A DNA stretch of 64,000 nucleotides, from sequence record OQ938542.1. The stretch is one strand, 5' to 3'. Each line of letters starts with the position of its first letter. The first letter of the stretch is position 1. Shown here piece by piece: positions 1 through 52,293 of this stretch. This DNA is from Escherichia phage vB_EcoP_PE007. The notes under the pieces are model-generated. The model worked only from the letters and a program-made list of their open reading frames with translations, was not told the DNA's origin and did not search any database. Made by a program: the position numbers and the translations under genes.

Positions 1-1
1 T

Positions 2-559
2 ACCAAACTGCCACGTGTAGTCTCTGCTATTGAAGGTGAAGATATTAACTGGCACGTTGATGTAGCAGGTGGGAAAGCACCATTTACTTATAAATGGCAA
101 TTCAAAGCTGATACTGCTGGTGCAGCATTCGCTGATATTAGCTCCAGTACTAACCCATCTGCTGCTACTGCAACATTGACCCTTAATGATGTAACAGCTA
201 CTTCTGCTGGTACTTACAAAGTGATTGTTACTGATGCTAATGGAACCACGGTAGAGGATGGGTCACTATTAGCTGTAGGCTATTACGAAGCAAGCTCACT
301 GGTAGCTACTCCTGCTTCACTGGCTCTGTCTGTTGCTGCCGATGCTGTTGCTGGTAAGACTGTAACAATTGTTGCTATGCCCGTTGGTTCATCTGCTGGT
401 ACTTTGTCTATCAAGACTGCTCCAGATTCTGCTCGTGCTACGGCTACCATTGCTGGTAACGTACTGACAGTTAAACCAGTGGCTGCTGGTGATACTACTT
501 CTGTAGTAGTTACCAACGGTATAGTCGATGTAACCATCCCTGTTACTGTTGCAGAATAA
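2..559 (+). CDS. Ig-like domain protein, 5' partial (possible capsid decoration protein)
   Basis: Frame is open from window start to the stop at 557-559 (track start at 176 is TTG inside the frame); Thr/Val/Ala-rich beta-strand repeats such as TYKVIVTDANGTT and VVVTNGIVDVTIPVTV. Confidence 0.45.
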   Translation, partial: TKLPRVVSAIEGEDINWHVDVAGGKAPFTYKWQFKADTAGAAFADISSSTNPSAATATLTLNDVTATSAGTYKVIVTDANGTTVEDGSLLAVGYYEASSLVATPASLALSVAADAVAGKTVTIVAMPVGSSAGTLSIKTAPDSARATATIAGNVLTVKPVAAGDTTSVVVTNGIVDVTIPVTVAE

Positions 560-581
560 TAGTACTTCTTTTTGTGGTTAT

Positions 582-601
582 AGCCCTCCTTAGTGAGGGC
601 T
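582..601 (+). terminator. hairpin attenuator/terminator
   Basis: agccctc-cttagt-gagggct followed by ttcttgtat; near-identical copy at 27631-27649. Confidence 0.4.
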
Positions 602-626
602 TTCTTGTATCTATAGGAGAGTAAAA

Positions 627-935
627 ATGACACAGAAATTACGTGTATGGCACATTCCCCAAATGCCAATGAAGGCATTTCATGTAGAAACTGATAGTCT
701 TCAGGAAGCTGTTAAGATTAAGAATGCGTTAGCAGACTATGACCTATTCCAGTATGAGAACAATGTCAAAGGCGATTATGCTAATGCTAACGGTATTGAG
801 ATGTGGGATGAGTCCCTCACTGACCAAGACCTTATTGATAGGGAATTGGAGGACCGTTGGGTAGATTGGTATATTGAAACTGAAGACGATTTCTTTGATG
901 ACCCAGAAGAATATCTGAATTATCTAATCAAGTAA
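627..935 (+). CDS. small acidic hypothetical protein
   Basis: ATG at 627 preceded by aggaga RBS; strongly acidic C-terminus (ETEDDFFDDPEEY). Confidence 0.6.
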   Translation: MTQKLRVWHIPQMPMKAFHVETDSLQEAVKIKNALADYDLFQYENNVKGDYANANGIEMWDESLTDQDLIDRELEDRWVDWYIETEDDFFDDPEEYLNYLIK

Positions 936-987
936 GTATGATTGCTTTATTTGGGGTTATAAACCCTGAAATGAAACCCTCAAGTTT

Positions 988-1017
988 GACCTCCCTATTG
1001 AAGGGAGGTCTTTTTTT
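988..1017 (+). terminator. rho-independent terminator
   Basis: gacctccc-tattgaa-gggaggtc followed by T7. Confidence 0.75.
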
Positions 1018-1042
1018 GACTTAAACATCCTGGAGCCAGGAA

Positions 1043-1231
1043 ATGTACAAAGAGATTGCGTTTTTCTCATTCTTACTAGGTGGTTTGATAGGTGCAGGAT
1101 TTGTAGCTATTTCTAATACCTACTTTGGTTCTACTCCAAACTCTGTAACACAAACCCTCAAGCATGAATGTGAATTGAATATCCCTCGTAATCAAAACTG
1201 TGTAATGCAGTTCGTACCGGAGAAGAAATGA
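1043..1231 (+). CDS. small membrane protein
   Basis: ATG with ggagccagg RBS; hydrophobic N-terminal segment FFSFLLGGLIGAGFVAI. Confidence 0.5.
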   Translation: MYKEIAFFSFLLGGLIGAGFVAISNTYFGSTPNSVTQTLKHECELNIPRNQNCVMQFVPEKK

Positions 1232-1488
1232 ATATTCATAATCTACATTTGGTTGAAAAACTGTATGAAGAATACAACGACAACCGACAGCAATTAGCTA
1301 GTTTGAAGAAAGCTCCACATATGGTGAAAGTATCCTTTTACGATAAGGATTTAGGACCGCAAGCTCGTACAAGAATACTACCTGAGCTACTGTCATTTTA
1401 TCAAAATAAGGTAGATGACTTAGAGAAACGCCTGAAGCATTTAGGTGTAGATTTATCAACGCTACCGGATGAAGGAGAAGATGAGTGA
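1228..1488 (+). CDS. hypothetical protein
   Basis: ATG overlapping upstream stop (ATGA), operon-style coupling. Confidence 0.5.
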   Translation: MNIHNLHLVEKLYEEYNDNRQQLASLKKAPHMVKVSFYDKDLGPQARTRILPELLSFYQNKVDDLEKRLKHLGVDLSTLPDEGEDE

Positions 1489-1694
1489 AAGTAACAAATC
1501 GTTCTGAGAACAATGAGGTAACTTTCGGTGATGTGGAGCCTGCTAATGGTTTTATTTATAACCAGACAGTGTGTTTAAAGATTCACTTACCTGATGGTAA
1601 ACCTGCTGCTGTTGCTGTAGAAACTGGTAAATCATTCTGTCTATCTGCAAGTACATTCGTAACACCAATAAACCTGGAAGGATATTACCTTTGA
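1485..1694 (+). CDS. hypothetical protein (GTG start)
   Basis: GTG at 1485 with gaaggag RBS 5 nt upstream; no internal Met. Confidence 0.4.
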   Translation: MKVTNRSENNEVTFGDVEPANGFIYNQTVCLKIHLPDGKPAAVAVETGKSFCLSASTFVTPINLEGYYL

Positions 1695-1876
1695 AATTAA
1701 CACAGTCCCAAGCAATCTTCCTTCGTATGGTTCAAGGTGGCTCTGCCACCAGCAACCGTAATAACAAAACCGCACAGTCTCTTAAAAAGCTGGGCTTAGT
1801 TCAGTTCAATACTGGTCTTGGGTGGTCATTAACCCCTATCGGTGTACTTCAACTCAACGAAATGAAAGGTAACTAA
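1691..1876 (+). CDS. hypothetical protein (TTG start)
   Basis: TTG at 1691 with ggaagga RBS; alternative ATG at 1727. Confidence 0.35.
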   Translation: MKLTQSQAIFLRMVQGGSATSNRNNKTAQSLKKLGLVQFNTGLGWSLTPIGVLQLNEMKGN

Positions 1877-2206
1877 ATGAAAACTTTACTTAAAGGTATT
1901 GCAGTAGCTGCACTGATAGCTTTGGCCCCAAGTGCACAGGCAATTGAACCAGAACCAATTCTGGAAGGTGCTCAGGCTTACCTGGATGACACCCGTGATG
2001 TGTTCGGGCAAGGGTTCTTCATGGGCAGCATGGTTGCTTACATTGAGAACACAAATAACTGTGTTCCTGATGGTATTAAGTATTCAAGCATTCTGCCTAA
2101 GATTGCCAAAGTAGTTATTTATGACTCTGCGATCCTTAAGATGAAGAATACATCTCAAATTATTGCGTACTCAGTGCACAAGGCATATCCCTGCACCAAA
2201 TCTTAA
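1877..2206 (+). CDS. secreted/periplasmic small protein
   Basis: N-terminal signal peptide MKTLLKGIAVAALIALAPSAQA with AQA-I cleavage-type site; two Cys. Confidence 0.55.
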   Translation: MKTLLKGIAVAALIALAPSAQAIEPEPILEGAQAYLDDTRDVFGQGFFMGSMVAYIENTNNCVPDGIKYSSILPKIAKVVIYDSAILKMKNTSQIIAYSVHKAYPCTKS

Positions 2207-2240
2207 TTAGTAATTCCATTAGCTTTAGGAGAGTAAGTAA

Positions 2241-3293
2241 ATGGCAAGCATTGACTCCTTGACCGTATGTAATTCACGTCAAGCCCGTAACTTTATTATC
2301 CGTGCCTTGAAAGCAGGTAACGTACCGTTCCTGACTTCATCCCCGGGTATGGGTAAATCTGCAATCATTCGTTCTATTGCAGAAGAATTTGGTATGAAGC
2401 TGATAGATCATCGTCTGTCTACTTCTGCCCCAGAAGACCTGTCTGGCTTACCATTCCGTAATGGTGACCGTGCAGAGTTTATTCCATTCGCTGACTTATT
2501 CCCCATTGAAGGGGATGAAGTACCAGAAGGGTATAATGGCTGGCTCCTGTTCCTTGATGAGTTCAACTCAGCTAAGAAAGAGGTAGTGGCTGCTGCATAC
2601 AAACTAATTCTCGACCGTATGACTGGTCAGAAAAAACTTCATCCTAATGTGATGATTGTATGCGCTGGTAACAAAGCTACTGACCGTGCCATTGTTAACC
2701 CATTAGGTACTGCAATGCAGTCCCGTGTGGTTCACTTTGAAATGGAACTTAACTTCGACATCTTTGTTGAAGACGTAATGATTCCTCAGCAATGGGATGA
2801 ACGTCTGGTTGCATTCTTACATGCTAATCCAGGCTATCTGCATGACTTCGACCCAGCTCATAAGAACAAAACGTTCTGTTGTCCTCGTACTTGGGACTTT
2901 GTTAATAAAGACCTCAAGAACCTGCCAGAAGGTGCTCTTCCTGATGAAGATTCTATCTACTATGCAGGTCACGTTACTGCTGGTAAGGCTACAGAGTTTG
3001 TTCAGTTTACTCAGGTATATAATCGTATCATTACGATTGAGAAGGTAGTCAAAGACCCACTGGGCTGTGCACTACCGGAAGATAACAACCTGTGTTGGGC
3101 TACCGTTAACCATCTGGCTAACAAGACTACTGAAGAGAACTTTGTTGATGTTCTTCAGTACATTGAACGCTTTAAAACGTTCACCCATAAGATTCTGTAC
3201 TTCCGCACAGTAGGCAAGGCTTTACCAGAAATTCAGGCTACACCTGAATGGCGTAAGGCTGCTGCTAACGTCTCTCGTTACATTCACGGATAA
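2241..3293 (+). CDS. MoxR-like AAA+ ATPase
   Basis: Walker A SSPGMGKSAI, Walker B LFLDEFNS; aggagag RBS. Confidence 0.75.
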   Translation: MASIDSLTVCNSRQARNFIIRALKAGNVPFLTSSPGMGKSAIIRSIAEEFGMKLIDHRLSTSAPEDLSGLPFRNGDRAEFIPFADLFPIEGDEVPEGYNGWLLFLDEFNSAKKEVVAAAYKLILDRMTGQKKLHPNVMIVCAGNKATDRAIVNPLGTAMQSRVVHFEMELNFDIFVEDVMIPQQWDERLVAFLHANPGYLHDFDPAHKNKTFCCPRTWDFVNKDLKNLPEGALPDEDSIYYAGHVTAGKATEFVQFTQVYNRIITIEKVVKDPLGCALPEDNNLCWATVNHLANKTTEENFVDVLQYIERFKTFTHKILYFRTVGKALPEIQATPEWRKAAANVSRYIHG

Positions 3294-3300
3294 TCACAAC

Positions 3301-4476
3301 ATGAACCAATTTCCTCAGCACACACTTAGTGATGAACAACTCATGCGTGAGTATGACCGTATTCAGGCTCAAGCCTTCCTGGGTAAGTCTGCTGCGTTCT
3401 TTGGTTCATTGCTGTGTAGTCTTAAATTCTCATGGAAACGCGAGGATTGCCCCACTGCATGTACTGATGGGATAGAACTCCATTTCAACCCAGACTTCTT
3501 TATCTGGATGTGTCCAGATGCAAGAGAAACAGTATTAATGCACGAGTTATGGCATGTGGCATATCTACATGACATTCGTCGTGGAAGCCGTGACCCGGAA
3601 GTCTGGAACCAGGCTTGTGACCACTTCATTAACCTTCAGTTAGAAGAGGATGGTTACAAGTTCACTGGTATTGACAAAGGCATTTGCAAAGACCCTCAAT
3701 ATAAGGATTGGGTCGAAGAAGACATCTACGATGACCTGATGAAGAACCCTCAGAAAAGGCAGAAGCCGTCAGGGGGTGCTGGAGCAGGTCTTGCTGGCGA
3801 CATAAAATCCCCCACTTCGGGGCAGTCCCAGGGTGCTGTTGTCAACAACGTAGTTCGTGCAATGCAGAGCCAGAAAATGGCTGGTGGACAGATGCCTGGT
3901 AAGGGTGCTGGACGTATGGAAGAGGTTATTACCCAATTCCTTAAACCAGTGGTTCCTTGGCAGGAAGTTCTGATGAACTTCTTTACCGACATTGATGACA
4001 CTCACTATACGTGGGCCAGACCAAACCGTCGTTATACTGACACCTATCTACCTTCACTGGAAGATGATGAAGGACGCCTACGACACTTAGCTTATTTTGA
4101 GGATGTATCCGGTTCTATTAGTAGTGCTGACTCTCTGCGTTTTAACTCAGAGGTTGCCTACGTTAAGAGCCAGTTCAATCCTAAGAAGATGTCCCTAATT
4201 ACCTTCGACGATATTATCCAGGAAGAAATAGACATCACTGAAGAAGATACTTTCGAAGAAATTAAAATTACTGGTCGTGGTGGTACAAGCCTCGTGCCTG
4301 TACGAGATTGGATTATTAAGAATAAGCCAACCGCTGCAATCATATTCTCCGATATGTATGTTCGTCCAATGGAAGAATTGCCATTTGATATCCCTATCAT
4401 CTGGTGTGTTCTGAATAATCCCAATGCTACCGTACCTTTTGGGGAGGTAGTTCATATCCCTAAAGGAATGAAATAA
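3301..4476 (+). CDS. VWA-like domain protein with HExxH metallopeptidase-like N-domain (DUF2201-type)
   Basis: HELWH motif; C-terminal half resembles a VWA-like fold; immediately follows the MoxR ATPase as in bacterial MoxR-VWA pairs. Confidence 0.55.
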   Translation: MNQFPQHTLSDEQLMREYDRIQAQAFLGKSAAFFGSLLCSLKFSWKREDCPTACTDGIELHFNPDFFIWMCPDARETVLMHELWHVAYLHDIRRGSRDPEVWNQACDHFINLQLEEDGYKFTGIDKGICKDPQYKDWVEEDIYDDLMKNPQKRQKPSGGAGAGLAGDIKSPTSGQSQGAVVNNVVRAMQSQKMAGGQMPGKGAGRMEEVITQFLKPVVPWQEVLMNFFTDIDDTHYTWARPNRRYTDTYLPSLEDDEGRLRHLAYFEDVSGSISSADSLRFNSEVAYVKSQFNPKKMSLITFDDIIQEEIDITEEDTFEEIKITGRGGTSLVPVRDWIIKNKPTAAIIFSDMYVRPMEELPFDIPIIWCVLNNPNATVPFGEVVHIPKGMK

Positions 4477-4982
4477 TGGTTGTTAATGGTAATTCTCTAT
4501 ATCGTTCATCTCAGTTGCTGGATGTCCCAGACCGTAAGATATCCGAACATGGTGTAAGCTATGGATTGGGTGAAGCTGGTTACGATATTCGTATCAAACA
4601 AGATATTACCTTCTATCGCTTATTTGGGTTGATTCCAATGGTGAAAGTCGTTGATGGAAACAAAGTATCACGCCATCTCGGTAAATTCACATTGGCTTCA
4701 GCAATTGAGAAGTTCAACATGTCCCCATCCTGTGTAGCTATCGTTCACGATAAGTCTACGTGGGCAAGACGTGCATTATCAGTGTTCAATACCGTAATAG
4801 AACCAGGATGGAAAGGGTATCTCACCCTTGAACTGGTCTATCATGGTCGTAAGAAATTGCATATCCCAGCTGGTGCTGGGATAGCTCAAGTATTATTTCA
4901 TCTGGTTCAAGAACCTGCTAATTACAATGGCAAGTATATGAACCAGGAAAACAAACCAGTAGCTGCAAGAAGCAGTAAATAA
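4476..4982 (+). CDS. dCTP deaminase / dUTPase-family protein
   Basis: GYDIRI motif and C-terminal VIEPGWKGYLTLELV resembling the dCTP deaminase signature. Confidence 0.6.
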   Translation: MVVNGNSLYRSSQLLDVPDRKISEHGVSYGLGEAGYDIRIKQDITFYRLFGLIPMVKVVDGNKVSRHLGKFTLASAIEKFNMSPSCVAIVHDKSTWARRALSVFNTVIEPGWKGYLTLELVYHGRKKLHIPAGAGIAQVLFHLVQEPANYNGKYMNQENKPVAARSSK

Positions 4983-4991
4983 GGAAACAAC

Positions 4992-5201
4992 ATGTCAATA
5001 TTTCAAGTAACTCATGCAACCTCAGATGTACGTGTAACCATTAATGCTGCAAATGTAGTAGGAGTGGAACAAATTCCACTGTCTGATTGTGCACGTATCA
5101 CATTCGTAAATGATAGTACTATGGACACCAAAGAAACCTATCGTTCGGTACGTAATTACCTGAAGAAAGCTCTTGCTCCTACAAGCAAAGACGCTGAGTA
5201 A
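4992..5201 (+). CDS. hypothetical protein
   Basis: ATG with aaggaaa RBS. Confidence 0.45.
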   Translation: MSIFQVTHATSDVRVTINAANVVGVEQIPLSDCARITFVNDSTMDTKETYRSVRNYLKKALAPTSKDAE

Positions 5202-5274
5202 GTAACTGCCTAAATAGCCCAGCATAGTTGGGCTATTTGTGAAGAAACTAACTCAACCCCACATAGGAACCATC

Positions 5275-5517
5275 ATGGAATCTTTAGCAGCAATCCTTGT
5301 TATGTTGTTTGTATTAGCTGTATACCTTATCCCTACTATCATTGCTTTCTCACGAGGCCATGCCTCTAAGTGGGGTATTGGTGTGCTTAATATCGTATTA
5401 GGCTGGTCTTTAGTCTTCTGGGTAGTAGCACTGATTTGGTCGCTGTCCAACAAAGGACAGAACCAAGTTACAAATGTAACTGTTGTCCAAACCAATGGTG
5501 GCAGTAAAGCAGAGTAA
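5275..5517 (+). CDS. superinfection immunity (Imm-family) membrane protein
   Basis: YLIPTIIAFSRGHASKWGIGVLNIVLGWSLVFWVVALIWSL matches the Imm_superinfect pattern; ATG 5275 with aggaa RBS (track start 5239 is GTG). Confidence 0.55.
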   Translation: MESLAAILVMLFVLAVYLIPTIIAFSRGHASKWGIGVLNIVLGWSLVFWVVALIWSLSNKGQNQVTNVTVVQTNGGSKAE

Positions 5518-5591
5518 CTAATCGTAATAGTCTCATGAGGCTATTACTGGAAGTTACTTCCAGCTCATTGCTTATCCATCTCCTAATCCAA

Positions 5592-5616
5592 GCCCACCTA
5601 ACCCGTGGGCTTTTTT
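5592..5616 (+). terminator. rho-independent terminator
   Basis: gcccac-ctaaccc-gtgggc followed by T6. Confidence 0.7.
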
Positions 5617-5632
5617 AATTACAGGTACTCTT

Positions 5633-6013
5633 ATGTCAAACAGACGAAATGGTAAGTCTATCTTTCAAGGGATGGACTTCGGTAAGCTGGAACAAACTGC
5701 AATGCTTGCTTTGGGTAAAACTGTCCATGACCAAGTGGAGAGTAAAATTGAATTAGATCTTTATGCAACAATGCAGACTCTTATTCAGAAAAAATGGATT
5801 ACTAGCAGACCTTTTCCTTCATACATTCCCCCAGAACCACATCTGAAATCTAAGGTAGACCGTATCATAGATAAGTTCTGGCTTAGCCCGTGTTATGACG
5901 AAATGCATCTTTACTTGGCTCAAATACAAAAGAATCCTTATACCAAAGATGTATTTAAGGGCAAGAGCACTACCCATCACTACCCCTGGTATAGAAGAGG
6001 TAGTAAATACTAA
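5633..6013 (+). CDS. hypothetical protein
   Basis: ATG ORF following terminator 5592-5616. Confidence 0.45.
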   Translation: MSNRRNGKSIFQGMDFGKLEQTAMLALGKTVHDQVESKIELDLYATMQTLIQKKWITSRPFPSYIPPEPHLKSKVDRIIDKFWLSPCYDEMHLYLAQIQKNPYTKDVFKGKSTTHHYPWYRRGSKY

Positions 6014-6456
6014 TGCGTATCCCATTCCTAAGAAAAAGAGAACGAAATCCTGTTCTTTATAATAAAGGCATAGAGGATGAGTATGAACTCAACCGTAAAG
6101 CCCGTTCCTACATAACAAAATTATTCATGGGGACTAAAAACCCTGATAGATTATTAGACTTTGTTTTTGAACAAGTCTTTATCATATACAGCTTAGCTAT
6201 GTCTGCTGGTTCACAAGAAGTAAGTGATAAGGCAAGAAATGCTCTCTGTATGCTCCGTAAAGAGTATGAAGCTCTCATGTATGGAGACTTGTACTCATTT
6301 AAGGAAGAAACCGCTGTAGCGTGTTCTGTGGCTCTTACTGAAGGTGTAGCAGTATTACAGGAACTACCTCGTAGTGAGTTTAAACTGGTATATGTTCAGG
6401 TTAAGAGAATCACAGAAACGAGAAGTGGTATCACTAACTATCTAAGGTCATTCTAA
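6013..6456 (+). CDS. hypothetical protein
   Basis: ATG overlapping upstream stop. Confidence 0.45.
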   Translation: MRIPFLRKRERNPVLYNKGIEDEYELNRKARSYITKLFMGTKNPDRLLDFVFEQVFIIYSLAMSAGSQEVSDKARNALCMLRKEYEALMYGDLYSFKEETAVACSVALTEGVAVLQELPRSEFKLVYVQVKRITETRSGITNYLRSF

Positions 6457-7400
6457 TGATTAAGGCATCAGTAATTGCAGATTCCGTTCATCCAGAAACA
6501 GGAACCCGTATCACAACCTTTGAATTGGTTTATCCCCGATTCATTCACAGTGAGTTTATGACTCACCGTGTATTCAACCGCAATGCTTCAAGTAGCCGTG
6601 CTATTCCTACCTCTAAGTTAATCGAACAGGTTCGCAATGAACCAGTGATGCCAAGTCACTGGGGCAAGAACCAGAAAGGTATGCAAGCAGATGAAGAACT
6701 CACTCCTATGGAGATTGAGGATGCTAAGTTTATCTGGGATAACGCTGCATCTGCTGCTGCTGTGTATGCTGAACAGCTACGTCGTGGGCAAGTACATAAG
6801 CAGATTGTTAACCGCATTCTGGAACCATTCACTCATATCCGTGTAGTAGTAACTTCAACTAGCTGGGCTAATTTCTATGGACTGCGTGACCACAAAGATG
6901 CACAGCCAGAGATTCGTGAACTGGCTCAAGCAATGCGTATGGCACATGAAGAAAGTACACCAAGGGCATTACCATATGGACAATGGCATCTGCCATATGT
7001 TGCTCATATTGATCGTGTTGGGGCTTACAATTTCTGCAAACGCAATCGAATTACACGCGATGAACCAAGTGATGCAGAAGTGCATGGACTACTCCTCAAA
7101 GTAAGTGCTGCACGCTGTGCCCGTGCCTCATATAACAACTTTGAGGGACGCCCTTCTACTATCGAAGAAGATCTTGGCTTATTCGCTAAGTTAGTAGAAA
7201 ACCAACCTATTCATGCTTCTCCAACGGAACATCAGGCTACACCTATGAACCTTGGTGAGAAGTATGTGAATAACATGAACCCAGTTACCTGGGAACAAGG
7301 TGTTACATCCATGGATAAAGAAGGGAATCTGTACTCAGGTAACCTGCTCCACTTTATCCAATTCCGTAAATTAATTCCTGGTGAGACTATTACTGAATGA
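6456..7400 (+). CDS. ThyX-like FAD-dependent thymidylate synthase
   Basis: THRVFNRNASSSRAI resembles the ThyX RHRxxSxNxxSxR signature, with Thr in place of the first Arg. Confidence 0.5.
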   Translation: MIKASVIADSVHPETGTRITTFELVYPRFIHSEFMTHRVFNRNASSSRAIPTSKLIEQVRNEPVMPSHWGKNQKGMQADEELTPMEIEDAKFIWDNAASAAAVYAEQLRRGQVHKQIVNRILEPFTHIRVVVTSTSWANFYGLRDHKDAQPEIRELAQAMRMAHEESTPRALPYGQWHLPYVAHIDRVGAYNFCKRNRITRDEPSDAEVHGLLLKVSAARCARASYNNFEGRPSTIEEDLGLFAKLVENQPIHASPTEHQATPMNLGEKYVNNMNPVTWEQGVTSMDKEGNLYSGNLLHFIQFRKLIPGETITE

Positions 7401-7636
7401 AAAAACTAGCTCTATACGCAATGCTAATTAGTACCCTACTAACACTGACCTACGCATACAAAGTTGCCTTTGTCGTAGAAACAGATATGCAGTTCATTCG
7501 AGCTAGTATTCTGTTCTTTGTAAGCGAGATTGGTTTATGGTGTGTTTACTACTTTGCTCGTGACTACGAAGCAATTCGTGAGCAAGAAGAAGTGAAAAAA
7601 CAAATGATACGATTTGTAGAACAAAATCGTAAGTAA
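7397..7636 (+). CDS. small membrane protein
   Basis: Two hydrophobic segments; followed by terminator 7643-7667. Confidence 0.5.
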   Translation: MKKLALYAMLISTLLTLTYAYKVAFVVETDMQFIRASILFFVSEIGLWCVYYFARDYEAIREQEEVKKQMIRFVEQNRK

Positions 7637-7642
7637 ACCTAA

Positions 7643-7667
7643 GACCTCCTCCGGGAGGTCTTTTTTT
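7643..7667 (+). terminator. rho-independent terminator
   Basis: gacctcc-tccg-ggaggtc followed by T7. Confidence 0.75.
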
Positions 7668-7696
7668 GGTTTCAATTAACTCTTTTAGGAGGGCAT

Positions 7697-7909
7697 ATGC
7701 CTGCTAAATACCGTATCAAAGACACACCCGTAATGTGTGAGGGTGAGAAGGGCGACATTGTATATGCCTGTATCCAGGATGATTTCAATGCTGCTCAGAT
7801 GCTAACCCAAATGACAAATACACTGCATGTGTCAGTAACACTGGACCCTACCGGTGACTATCCATGCTTCCCTATTCCTGCCCATAACCTGGAGCAAATT
7901 CATGATTAA
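7697..7909 (+). CDS. hypothetical protein
   Basis: ATG with aggaggg RBS. Confidence 0.5.
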   Translation: MPAKYRIKDTPVMCEGEKGDIVYACIQDDFNAAQMLTQMTNTLHVSVTLDPTGDYPCFPIPAHNLEQIHD

Positions 7910-8216
7910 CCCTGAAGTAATTCATAGTAAAACCGGTAAGGCTGTCCCACTCAGTGAGATTGCAGTAACTGGTGATATTGCTGCTTGTCCAGCAAACATT
8001 GCCTCTCTATGTATGTGCATTGCTGCACTGGCAGAGGAACGTAAGTTATGGCTGGAGCCAAGCAAGGAAATGGTACTAGCTGGTATGGCTGAACTGAATG
8101 CACTTCTGAAAGAAATGTATGACGAGAATGGTCAATTAGTTGAACCTACTGATGACCAAATTTCAGACGCTGTAGTATTTGTCCTTCAAGCAATGGCAGG
8201 TAAACGCAATGGTTAA
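7902..8216 (+). CDS. hypothetical protein
   Basis: ATG at 7902 with ggag RBS, ATGA overlap with upstream stop; track start 7854 is further upstream in frame. Confidence 0.45.
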   Translation: MINPEVIHSKTGKAVPLSEIAVTGDIAACPANIASLCMCIAALAEERKLWLEPSKEMVLAGMAELNALLKEMYDENGQLVEPTDDQISDAVVFVLQAMAGKRNG

Positions 8217-26779: not shown

Positions 26780-26853
26780 GCCCACTTAGCTTAGACGGGG
26801 AAAGCAACCGACTAATAATCGGAAGGTCACTGGTTCAAATCCAGTAGTGGGTA
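26780..26853 (+). tRNA. tRNA (hand-folded anticodon AAU; identity uncertain)
   Basis: Acceptor gcccact/agtgggt (7 bp, one GU), D-arm gctt/aagc, anticodon arm accga-ctaataa-tcgga, 5-nt variable loop, T-arm actgg-TTCAAAT-ccagt, discriminator A; 74 nt. Confidence 0.65.
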
Positions 26854-27080
26854 CTTATTAATAGAGAACATAGTCCTGATTGCATTGCACTCTAAAGACA
26901 ATGCCGGTGAGACAGTCCGGCACTCTAATTATTGAAAACATACCTAACGGTGTGAGTATGAGCAGACTATAATGCTCAATTACAGTTAACTATTATCGGA
27001 CTATCAATCCTGTTTGCTGGTACAAGCACCGGTGGTAATAGTTAACTGGCCTAGCCTCGTTAGCTGCGTTAAAGCTACTA

Positions 27081-27169: not shown

Positions 27170-27550
27170 ATGGCAACAGTAAGTAAAGAAGCAATCGAAG
27201 CTAAGATTAAGAGCATTTACTTTTTCAATGGTGCAGATGCAGTGAAGTCTGCATTCGTTGACCCTTCTGCACTACCGGCAGATGATTTGGCTAACCTGGG
27301 TCTGACAACCCATTGTGTAATCATTCTGGAAAATGGATTTAAAGTTGAAGGTGTATCTGCTTGCGTAGACCCAACTATCTATGATGAGCAGTTAGGTCGC
27401 CAGTATGCATATGAAAATGCATTCAATAAGATTTGGGAATTAGAGGGCTACCTACTACGTCAGGCACTGCATGAGAAGGAAGAGACTGCTAAAGCTTTGG
27501 CTTCCTTTGCAGAAAACAATACCTGTGATGGTGGTGGTTGTACAATTTGA
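27170..27550 (+). CDS. hypothetical protein
   Basis: ATG 27170 with gagg RBS; first gene after terminator 27081-27105. Confidence 0.5.
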   Translation: MATVSKEAIEAKIKSIYFFNGADAVKSAFVDPSALPADDLANLGLTTHCVIILENGFKVEGVSACVDPTIYDEQLGRQYAYENAFNKIWELEGYLLRQALHEKEETAKALASFAENNTCDGGGCTI

Positions 27551-27630
27551 TTCAAAGGTGTATGGTAGTTTTTACCGAAAGGTACTGAACTACCCGACAT
27601 GTGGTAAGGCTCATGAAGCCAAAACAAAAC

Positions 27631-27655
27631 AAGCCCTCCTAGTGAGGGCTTTCTC
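27631..27655 (+). terminator. hairpin terminator/attenuator
   Basis: agccctc-ctagt-gagggct followed by ttctcattt. Confidence 0.45.
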
Positions 27656-27668
27656 ATTTGAGGTAGTT

Positions 27669-28184
27669 ATGTCAGAAGAAATTAAAGTCCATTTCACCAA
27701 CTACATTGGAACCAAGTGTGTAAATGGTTTCCGAATGAACAAAGAAACATACTGCAAACTTCGAGGCTGGGATGTACCAGCAGATGAAGATCCACTAGAA
27801 GAAGGTTACTTAGTCGAGTACCCAGACTCTAAGTCCAACCAACCTCAATTTCGTGGTTATCCTCAGTTCCGTGGCTATATTAGCTGGTCACCTAAAGCTG
27901 CATTTGAAGCTGCATACCATGACGTAGAAAAAGGTTGTACCTTTGGTCATGCAGTAGAGCTTCTCAAATCAGGCTTCAAACTAGCCCGTAAAGGCTGGAA
28001 TGGCAAAGAGATGTATATTTCCTATGTTGACCCAAAAGAGTGGAATAGTAGTGAACTGGAGCGTCCATGGGATGAAGACCTTAAGCCACGCCCGTGGATT
28101 GGTATCAAAACCGTCGATAATGAGTATATGCCTTGGGTTCCATCCCAATCGGATGTATTAGCAGAAGACTGGGTAATTCTATAG
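27669..28184 (+). CDS. protein with possible DUF2829/Tad2-like C-terminal domain
   Basis: ATG 27669 with gagg RBS; C-terminal FGHAVELLKSGFKLARKGWNGKEMYISYV ... PWVPSQSDVLAEDWVIL; assignment is from recalled family motif, not a search. Confidence 0.45.
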   Translation: MSEEIKVHFTNYIGTKCVNGFRMNKETYCKLRGWDVPADEDPLEEGYLVEYPDSKSNQPQFRGYPQFRGYISWSPKAAFEAAYHDVEKGCTFGHAVELLKSGFKLARKGWNGKEMYISYVDPKEWNSSELERPWDEDLKPRPWIGIKTVDNEYMPWVPSQSDVLAEDWVIL

Positions 28185-51170: not shown

Positions 51171-51698
51171 TTATTCCTGTTCAAAAAGTTTACGGTCAGC
51201 CTGGATCTGTTTACCCAACTCAATTAGTTGGCTGTCACGGAGTCTAACAGTTGCCCTGAGTTCTTCAACCAAACGTCTGCCTTCTTCAAGATTGTTGTCG
51301 AGTCTGGCTGCATGGCTTGCAAGACTTCTGCACTCAAAGGTTCCGGTTTCGGCTTGACGTTTATATACCGATGCTCGTCTTTCAGACTGTTGCATCCGGC
51401 TGTCATAATCACTGCTAACGCGAGCAAGCTCGCTTGCGTAATTACTCTCAGCCGTCTGCAACCGGGAAGTGAGTAACCCGACTTCATAACTATGGTTTCT
51501 TTGGAGAGCATTGTATTTGTCCTGTAATTTTTGTGTTGCCTTTTGGTCTTCAACCTTTTGGGCATCCCACTTCTTTTGAACAGTAGACTGTCCGTTGGAA
51601 TTACCCCAAAAGTAAATGGTGGCCCCGAGGACCACCACTAGAAGATAAGGCCAACCTTTAGAGATTAGCATCTTCATTACATGCCTCCAGTGGCACAT
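51171..51698 (-). CDS. i-spanin (Rz-like)
   Basis: N-terminal TM segment [22 protein letters not shown] followed by a charged coiled-coil-like region; contains an embedded lipoprotein ORF in another frame. Confidence 0.6.
51224..51565 (-). CDS. o-spanin (Rz1-like), embedded within the i-spanin gene
   Basis: Alternative frame wholly inside 51171-51698; signal peptide plus lipobox-like [12 protein letters not shown]; Pro-rich mature region; likely start at an internal ATG (51511 or 51487). Confidence 0.55.
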   Translation of the reverse strand: MPKRLKTKRQHKNYRTNTMLSKETIVMKSGYSLPGCRRLRVITQASLLALAVIMTAGCNSLKDEHRYINVKPKPEPLSAEVLQAMQPDSTTILKKADVWLKNSGQLLDSVTAN

Positions 51699-52293
51699 TG
51701 CCTATTCGGTTAGCTATCCAACCATACGTAAAGTCTGGCATGTTTAATGAGGTGTAGTGGTTCAGTTGTTTAGCATCTAGTAACTTAATCATTACCCGAC
51801 ATGCTGCAACTTTGCCTCGTTTTTTCTGTAATGCTTTATATGCATTAACAGTACTTACACCGACTTTACCATCAACCTGTATTTTAGGGTAGTCTTTGCC
51901 ATCACGGGACATTTCATTAAGAGATTGCTGTAACCACTTAGCCGGACGAGTTACACCAGTGTTAACACCGGCATCTACCAGCTTGTGTGTTACAGCAGGA
52001 GATATATCAGCGAAGGCTACGAAGTTAGGCTTAAGTACGTAGTCATCGATGTATATCTCAGCAGCCATCTCTTTAGATAAACCCTTCATAGAACCATCCC
52101 AGCCGTACTCAGTAGCCAGAACTTCTTTATGGGATTTAGCTACAGATTGGGTAATTCCATGATTAGTTTCCCCACCTGGGTCACGAGGATTATTTACATA
52201 ACCCCCTTCCATATAAAACACTGCCCCCAGGATAGCAGCGACAACTCCTCCCACTGCACCACCTTTCGCAGCAAGTTTCTGTTTAGCTTTCAT
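51658..52293 (-). CDS. N-acetylmuramidase endolysin (GH108-like) with N-terminal signal-anchor
   Basis: EGGYVNNPRDPGGETNHGIT signature; N-terminal hydrophobic Gly/Ala-rich segment GGAVGGVVAAILGAVFY suggests SAR-type export. Confidence 0.75.
   Translation of the reverse strand: MKAKQKLAAKGGAVGGVVAAILGAVFYMEGGYVNNPRDPGGETNHGITQSVAKSHKEVLATEYGWDGSMKGLSKEMAAEIYIDDYVLKPNFVAFADISPAVTHKLVDAGVNTGVTRPAKWLQQSLNEMSRDGKDYPKIQVDGKVGVSTVNAYKALQKKRGKVAACRVMIKLLDAKQLNHYTSLNMPDFTYGWIANRIGNVPLEACNEDANL

Follow-up and report, generated by a model that had tools for sequence, protein, structure and literature searches.

Three short genes with envelope-directed products lie on the + strand between positions 1043 and 5517 of a 64,000-nucleotide (nt) stretch of Escherichia phage vB_EcoP_PE007 DNA (OQ938542.1), referred to here as the window, to which all coordinates and strands refer. 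The first encodes a 62-amino acid (aa) bitopic membrane peptide (1043-1231), the second a secreted protein of 109 aa (1877-2206) predicted to adopt the Rap1a/Tai4a fold, and the third an 80-aa homologue of the T4 superinfection immunity protein Imm (5275-5517). A preliminary description had listed the three open reading frames (ORFs) as an early cluster of membrane, signal-peptide and Imm-family proteins serving superinfection exclusion or receptor masking; the ORFs, their features and the predicted envelope location of all three products stand. The reading frame of each is preserved in between 56 and several hundred phage records, and this conservation, together with the invariant cysteines of the 109-aa protein and the exclusively synonymous changes in the C-terminal tail of the 62-aa peptide, indicates that they are real genes and not chance ORFs.

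Over positions 900-5700 the window shares 92-95% nucleotide identity with the Escherichia phages ECBP1, Bp4, PD38, St11Ph5 and IME11, with 55 of the 70 matching records falling in the 90-95% identity band, and the RefSeq entries among the closest matches (such as G7C and PGN829.1) are classed as Gamaleyavirus, the G7C-like genus of the Schitoviridae. By these comparisons the window is assigned to a Gamaleyavirus genome (G7C-like, N4-family, Schitoviridae), ~93% identical to ECBP1 and Bp4. The gene order is N4-like, running from a Hoc-like decoration protein through small ORFs to the gp24 ATPase, the gp25 vWA protein, the gp26 dCTP deaminase, gp27, gp28, gp29 and ThyX. Two RNAPII genes sit directly upstream of the equivalent region in the relatives, and RNAPII transcribes the middle genes of N4 (PMC13434306), so that the region is better described as middle, pre-late than as early, the class it had first been given. 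The stretch appears to be the start of an N4-type middle-gene block, a class assigned by synteny with N4.

The secreted 109-aa protein and its exchanged mature domain

The gene at 1877-2206 (+) begins with a predicted Sec signal peptide encoded by 1877-1942 (MKTLLKGIAVAALIALAPSAQA followed by IEP, with the cut after AQA), has no lipobox and continues into a mature domain of 87 residues encoded by 1943-2203. The signal peptide consists of a basic n-region (MKTLLK), a hydrophobic core and the AQA/I cleavage motif, and by sequence prediction it is retained in all full-length homologues. Exactly two cysteines are present in the protein, Cys62 and Cys106, and both are invariant in all full-length homologues, some of which are just 27-41% identical. 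The sole Pfam match is to PF18602 ("Rap1a immunity proteins") and is sub-threshold, although individual scans of the family find PF18602 at E<=0.1 in 20 of 22 members, with a best value of 5.5e-5, and no other family recurs. The family is small: a search of 1.8 billion proteins gives 8 representatives at E<=0.001, one of 5.8 billion gives 19 clusters (90% identity), and in each genomic context examined the gene lies in the middle region of an N4-like phage.

A first AlphaFold2 model, built from 12 near-identical sequences, reached a predicted local distance difference test (pLDDT) score of only 47 and was discarded in favor of one calculated for the mature 87 residues from a diverse alignment of 22 sequences (26-99% identity). 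The replacement model has a pLDDT of 93.1 and a predicted template modeling score of 0.84 and is composed of five helices, matching the compact five-α-helix fold of Rap1a/Tai4a. Rap1a from Serratia marcescens (PDB codes 3ZFI and 4BI8) and AtTai4 from Agrobacterium (PDB codes 6IJE and 6IJF) are dimeric immunity proteins of the periplasm, each with five helices, and act through steric blockage of the Tae4/Ssp1 peptidoglycan DL-endopeptidases belonging to type VI secretion systems (T6SS) (PMC3852654, PMC6277958). In both a structural disulfide joins the α2-α3 loop to the C terminus, formed by C78-C122 in Rap1a (PMC3852654) and C80-C124 in AtTai4 (PMC6277958). The cysteines of the 109-aa model lie in the same elements, Cys62 in the loop between helices 2 and 3 and Cys106 after helix 5, and their spacing of 44 residues is that of both disulfides. 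The phage protein thus resembles Rap1a and AtTai4 in its predicted signal peptide, its five-helix model and the placement of its cysteines, and differs from them in being borne by virulent phages, in having no adjoining effector or T6SS cluster and in scoring below the Pfam gathering score.

Searches of the 109-aa protein against the sequences of PDB chains, made with a profile of close homologues, with a diverse profile and with the most Rap1a-like member of the family, returned nothing or noise, and the link to Rap1a accordingly rests on the fold and on the sub-threshold Pfam matches. Conservation calculated for each helix is slightly higher in the N-terminal half, which includes the dimer helix α2 (0.34-0.37), than in helices α3-α5 (0.22-0.26), a difference too weak to be of use. 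Some database records already carry the name. The Bp4 and SP5M orthologues, encountered in a BFVD fold search, are named "Rap1a immunity protein domain-containing protein" in UniProt, a few GenBank records of orthologues say "Tai4" and one metagenome record cites the Rap1a complex; no paper tying Gamaleyavirus or lytic phages to Tai4 or Rap1a was found among the papers searched. The 109-aa protein is, according to the model, a secreted protein of the Rap1a/Tai4a fold, a label that is not itself new in the databases.

Comparison among the Gamaleyaviruses shows that the gene exists in two forms, one 88-92% and the other 33-41% identical to the window protein. In alignments with G7C and PGN829.1, identity is 93-95% for the flanking 61-aa ORF, 96-97% for the ATPase and 37% for the 109-aa protein. 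The DNA similarity to these two phages stops at 1909, after codon 11 of the signal peptide, and resumes at 2183, so that the final 7 codons and the stop are conserved. The breakpoints are identical in both comparisons and delimit the swapped bases as 1910-2182. The whole mature domain has been exchanged between conserved arms in phages with more than 90% identity elsewhere, which is the pattern expected of a specificity determinant facing a variable partner.

A partner was sought elsewhere in the window. The endolysin gene (51658-52293, - strand) encodes, by Pfam, a GH108 muramidase with a PG_binding_3 domain that is 94.6-98.4% identical across the Gamaleyaviruses whichever 109-aa allele is carried, and the endolysin was rejected as a partner as it belongs to the wrong enzyme class and does not co-vary with the allele type. 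Seven proteins of the virion block were scanned and gave no Pfam match at E<=0.01, so that no NlpC/P60 or Tae4 domain is recognized among them. No Tae4/Ssp1 effector or T6SS cluster adjoins the gene, its neighbors being the 61-aa basic protein and the gp24 ATPase. As no cognate effector is recognized, the 109-aa protein is best described from its sequence and surroundings as an orphan immunity-type protein.

The Imm homologue and the 62-aa membrane peptide

The product of 5275-5517 (+) has two hydrophobic segments (approximately residues 1-27 and 33-59), both above 1.6 in the Kyte-Doolittle 19-residue mean by which such segments were called, and these are read as transmembrane (TM) segments. 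It scores 61.9 bits against PF14373 (Imm_superinfect; cut-off 27.9) over all 42 profile positions, with T4 Imm itself scoring 58.2 bits in the same scan, and it also matches phrog_1039 ("immunity to superinfection"). BLASTP aligns 61 aa with T4 Imm at 30% identity and 52% positives (E=4e-10). The similarity in length (80 aa compared with 83 aa in T4), the two hydrophobic helices of both proteins and the full-length match to the 42-residue Pfam core place 5275-5517 as a true member of the T4 Imm family, in agreement with the preliminary description and with existing annotation, the label being already present for gp27.1 in the G7C reference record and in many relatives. The ATG at 5275 is preferred as the start over an upstream GTG at 5239, which abuts a hairpin, because it is preceded by an AGGA Shine-Dalgarno motif and the same 243-nt gene with the same start is annotated in relatives.

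The surroundings of the gene are unlike those in T4. The protein is encoded by an N4-family podophage whose ejection machinery (gp51/gp52/vRNAP) is unrelated to the T4 tail, and the gene stands alone, without T4-type neighbors, as a hairpin-bounded insert. N4 has no imm counterpart, its gp27 and gp28 being spaced by 113 nt, and in the window imm with its flanking hairpins is inserted between the homologues of these two genes. Among the versions listed from outside Gamaleyavirus, the closest are those of 44-kb Acinetobacter phages (~54%), followed by those of ~165-kb Klebsiella and Providencia phages (~44-46%), a distribution that suggests horizontal acquisition of imm. In line with the note in the T4 record, the Imm homologue most likely blocks the transfer of secondary-phage DNA across the inner membrane.

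The 62-aa peptide (1043-1231, +), assigned from hydropathy and a match to phrog_7508, is encoded first after the terminator at 988-1010. It contains a single hydrophobic segment at approximately residues 5-23, with a Kyte-Doolittle 19-residue mean of up to 2.28, and two cysteines, Cys43 and Cys53. The family comprises 75 homologue clusters, all of 55-67 aa and many on phage-sized contigs of ~70-77 kb, and tblastn finds the peptide in Escherichia, Klebsiella, Shigella, Erwinia and Enterobacter phages; N4 has none. The C-terminal tail E-C-E-L-N-I-P-R-N-Q-N-C-V-M-Q-F-V-P-E is essentially invariant in members that are 41-54% identical overall, whereas the TM helix varies freely, and distant members retain C-x9-C-V-(M/Y)-Q-F-V-P-E. 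Compared with a Klebsiella phage, the 19 codons of the tail carry 8 synonymous differences and no non-synonymous one, which places the constraint on the peptide and not on the DNA; the frequent synonymous changes rule out a conserved nucleotide element as the explanation of the tail. The positive-inside rule places the C terminus inside in 62 of 79 members, with the Gamaleyavirus type weakly opposite, and because the topology predictions contradict one another between subfamilies no periplasmic cysteine pair or disulfide is claimed.

A homologue with the C-x9-C-VMQFVPE tail also occurs in the Escherichia phage KBNP1711 (Gordonclarkvirinae), a podophage outside the Schitoviridae, where it lies at 1498-1689 of the compared stretch and adjoins the dCTP deaminase gene. 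The occurrence of one tail in both Schitoviridae and Gordonclarkvirinae points to a binding partner that is presumably conserved as well.

Neighboring genes and transcription units

The gene at 627-935 (+) encodes an acidic (net -16) cytoplasmic protein of 102 aa that belongs to the P22 gp17/N4 gp18 family by its matches to phrog_1510 and to PF17420 ("superinfection exclusion gp17"; E=1.1e-44, 151 bits, cut-off 25). It is 61% identical to N4 gp18, which is annotated as similar to P22 gp17, has no envelope signal and forms a cassette of its own bounded by terminator-like hairpins on the + strand at 582-601 and 988-1010, both found by the terminator scan. tblastn detects it in PGN829.1 and in one metagenomic phage and does not find it in the compared stretches of G7C and 24-32N. 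The role of gp17 in P22 is to help the phage evade exclusion exerted by a resident prophage, and not to bring exclusion about.

Between the 62-aa and 109-aa genes are three ORFs on the + strand, each falling in a PHROG without a function: a soluble acidic product of 86 aa (1228-1488), a soluble product of 69 aa (1485-1694) and the soluble basic 61-aa product (1691-1876). None has a hydrophobic segment and all are translationally coupled to their neighbors. G7C lacks 1228-1488 and 1485-1694, and 24-32N lacks 1485-1694 only. The core genes follow on the same strand, assigned from their ORFs, the annotation of relatives and the Pfam matches of homologues, and encode the AAA ATPase (N4 gp24; 2241-3293), the vWA/DUF2201 protein (N4 gp25; 3301-4476) and the dCTP deaminase (N4 gp26; 4476-4982), which are 61-64% identical to N4 gp24-26. 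A soluble 69-aa homologue of N4 gp27 (38% identity; 4992-5201, +) is the last gene of the unit begun at 1043. In G7C an HNH endonuclease gene, gp24.1 (3918-4394 of the compared stretch), lies between the ATPase and vWA genes, where the window has a gap of just 7 nt (3293-3301). This gene and the ORFs missing from relatives indicate frequent small insertions and deletions in the block.

The corresponding slot of N4, from gp18 to gp24, contains the membrane protein gp19, the HflC-like lipoprotein gp20 and the membrane protein gp23. These occupy the same position as the 62-aa and 109-aa proteins (Hoc-like/gp18 genes to the gp24 ATPase) and are likewise small envelope proteins, but they share no sequence similarity with either. 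The presence of different envelope genes at one slot in N4 and in the window marks a genus-variable site for envelope-directed accessory genes, and the interval from the Hoc-like gene to the gp24 ATPase is by this comparison an accessory hot-spot for envelope proteins. The earlier idea of a cluster is retained to that extent only. The three genes themselves are dispersed, with ~2.7 kb of core genes between the second and the third, and the hairpins divide them between at least two transcription units.

Four further hairpins on the + strand surround imm. The first (5214-5236), read from the sequence directly 5' of the gene, has an 8-bp stem, ATAGCCCA/TGGGCTAT, followed by TTT, and the G7C record annotates a stem_loop at the equivalent place. 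The other three are consecutive between 5524 and 5612, in the 115-nt spacer 3' of imm: one at 5524-5547 and one at 5547-5563, both read from the sequence, and a terminator-like hairpin followed by TTTTT at 5590-5612, also found by the terminator scan. The middle one has a 7-bp stem (CTGGAAG/CTTCCAG) and a 3-nt loop, a stem and loop geometry like that of N4 vRNAP hairpin promoters. The hairpins at 988-1010, 5214-5236 and 5590-5612 split the stretch into at least two units, one covering 1043-5201 and the other imm alone. σ70-like promoter matches are depleted on both strands of positions 1-8000, with 5 found compared with 17.9 +/- 3.9 expected from shuffled sequences, a result consistent with a phage RNA polymerase, and not the host σ70 holoenzyme, transcribing the block. 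Rfam recognizes no RNA family within the studied region, PADLOC gives zero relevant matches for ten small ORFs, and NCBIfam gives nothing relevant for the same ten beyond one sub-threshold match to an unrelated enzyme.

Other features of the window lie outside this stretch. A 79-aa putative membrane protein (7397-7636, +) has two weakly hydrophobic segments, the first signal-peptide-like, and is 42-51% identical in relatives; its gene ends the ThyX unit and is followed by a terminator at 7641-7662. At 27471-28184 (+) a protein of 237 aa has a C-terminal region of 80 residues matching the Tad2-like family PF11195 (Thoeris anti-defense 2-like; E=4.7e-24) and is a candidate anti-Thoeris sponge. 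The sole tRNA gene (26780-26854, +) is a tRNA-Ile with the unusual anticodon AAT (ARAGORN), scoring 64.8 bits against the Rfam tRNA model.

Possible roles of the three envelope proteins

What was observed or computed comprises the reality of the genes, their assignment to families and folds, the structure of the cassette and the lack of a recognizable cognate effector; every function that follows is inferred. The three genes probably represent independent accessory modules acting on the envelope and dispersed among the core genes of an N4-type middle block, and not the parts of one system. Imm would be a two-helix inner-membrane protein, gained as a self-contained hairpin-bounded insert, that blocks the passage of secondary-phage DNA. 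The 62-aa peptide would be anchored in the membrane with its C-x9-C-VMQFVPE tail presumably binding a conserved partner. The 109-aa protein would be secreted, oxidized by the host Dsb system and probably dimeric, and its mature domain most likely binds tightly to, and sterically inhibits, a peptidoglycan hydrolase reaching the periplasm from outside. Candidates for such a hydrolase are a T6SS endopeptidase of the Tae4/Ssp1 type delivered by a neighboring bacterium and the lysin of a foreign phage. With the hydrolase inhibited, the infected cell would retain an intact wall up to the lysis brought about by the phage itself, and the mature domain would be swapped as a specificity determinant facing a variable target. 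We tentatively propose that virulent N4-family phages may carry an orphan, cassette-swapped protein of the Rap1a type that, over the long latent period, shields the peptidoglycan of the infected cell from T6SS amidases (Tae4/Ssp1) of neighboring bacteria or from the wall-degrading enzymes of rival phages, with different alleles directed against different attackers, a reading we hold as possible and short of probable. Orphan T6SS immunity genes, such as those of acquired interbacterial defense clusters in gut Bacteroidales, are like the 109-aa gene in being effector-less, in diversifying rapidly or being exchanged as cassettes and in occurring in mobile DNA of the gut. They differ in that their carriers are bacterial chromosomes or integrative elements and what they protect is a lineage that lives on, whereas the benefit to a virulent phage lasts for one infection cycle.

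Several observations weigh against this interpretation. The gathering score of PF18602 (27.7) is not reached, the window protein scoring 15.0-15.8 bits and the best homologue 24, and the likeness to Rap1a is at the level of the fold alone, with ~8% identity and Foldseek E-values of 0.3-2.6. The family is limited to N4-like phages and never lies beside an effector or a T6SS, which means that the target may be unconnected with T6SS, and the gain for a virulent phage from guarding its host against a T6SS is a plausible one. For the Imm homologue, the family is spread over very different phages (970 records) and its mechanism is not understood even in T4.

The alternative that survives best, although rather unlikely, is that all three proteins act jointly as superinfection-exclusion or receptor-masking factors on the T4 scheme of Imm and Spackle, with the 109-aa protein in the Spackle role. 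T4 Spackle (gp61.3) is a periplasmic inhibitor of the gp5 tail lysozyme, and T4 pairs Imm with this small, helical, disulfide-bonded hydrolase inhibitor (PMC7677548). The 109-aa protein is of like design, a small secreted helical bundle with one (predicted) disulfide, produced ahead of lysis by a virulent phage with an Imm gene of its own. The homology of Imm is solid, and superinfection-linked lysis inhibition occurs in N4-family phages, no exclusion system having been identified for N4 (PMC12642591). However, the 109-aa protein does not match the Spackle fold, and a Spackle-type self-exclusion has no obvious target because the N4 ejection proteins are reported to be without a peptidoglycan hydrolase (PMC13434306). 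Superinfection exclusion, the role first suggested for all three, is retained by homology for Imm only; the Rap1a/Tai4a fold of the 109-aa protein is that of no known exclusion protein. For receptor masking no evidence was found, and the fold of the 109-aa protein is that of a peptidoglycan-endopeptidase inhibitor and not of a known receptor-masking protein.

Small helical bundles can converge, and if the likeness to Rap1a has this origin the 109-aa protein would be a periplasmic helical bundle with an unrelated role, chaperone-like or as a binder of the outer membrane or a receptor, and the three ORFs would be ordinary accessory genes of the phage that share no theme. The low identity is compatible with such an origin; set beside it are the recurrence of PF18602 across the family and the shared position and spacing of the cysteines, and we regard convergence as improbable. 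It is quite improbable that the 109-aa protein inhibits a host NlpC/P60-type endopeptidase (e.g. MepS or MepH), or else the lysis enzymes of the phage itself, and stabilizes the sacculus in the long N4-type latent period or in lysis inhibition: Rap1a-fold proteins do neutralize papain-like peptidoglycan endopeptidases of the NlpC/P60 superfamily (PMC3852654), lysis inhibition occurs in the N4 family and the gene lies by synteny in a pre-late block, but a conserved host enzyme or endolysin as the target fits poorly with a mature domain swapped for a 37%-identical allele among phages of the same host species, and the endolysin, 95-98% conserved and without co-variation with the allele, is a muramidase and not a papain-like peptidase.

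The annotation of Imm in the G7C reference record, the Rap1a/Tai4 labels in relatives and the presence of the genes in dozens of relatives were already known, the two genes other than imm counting as conserved hypothetical proteins. What is added is the description of a secreted protein with a predicted T6SS-immunity fold that is effector-less in virulent phages and is swapped as a cassette with precise boundaries. For the exclusion function missing in studies of lysis inhibition in the N4 family, imm is a concrete candidate, although N4 itself is without it. If the 109-aa protein neutralizes peptidoglycan hydrolases arriving from outside, it would tie infection by phages to antagonism between bacteria and would also be a functional analogue of T4 Spackle that is unrelated in fold. 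Should the shielding of the infected-cell wall proposed here prove true, immunity in interbacterial warfare would be a phage-borne trait of lytic infection.

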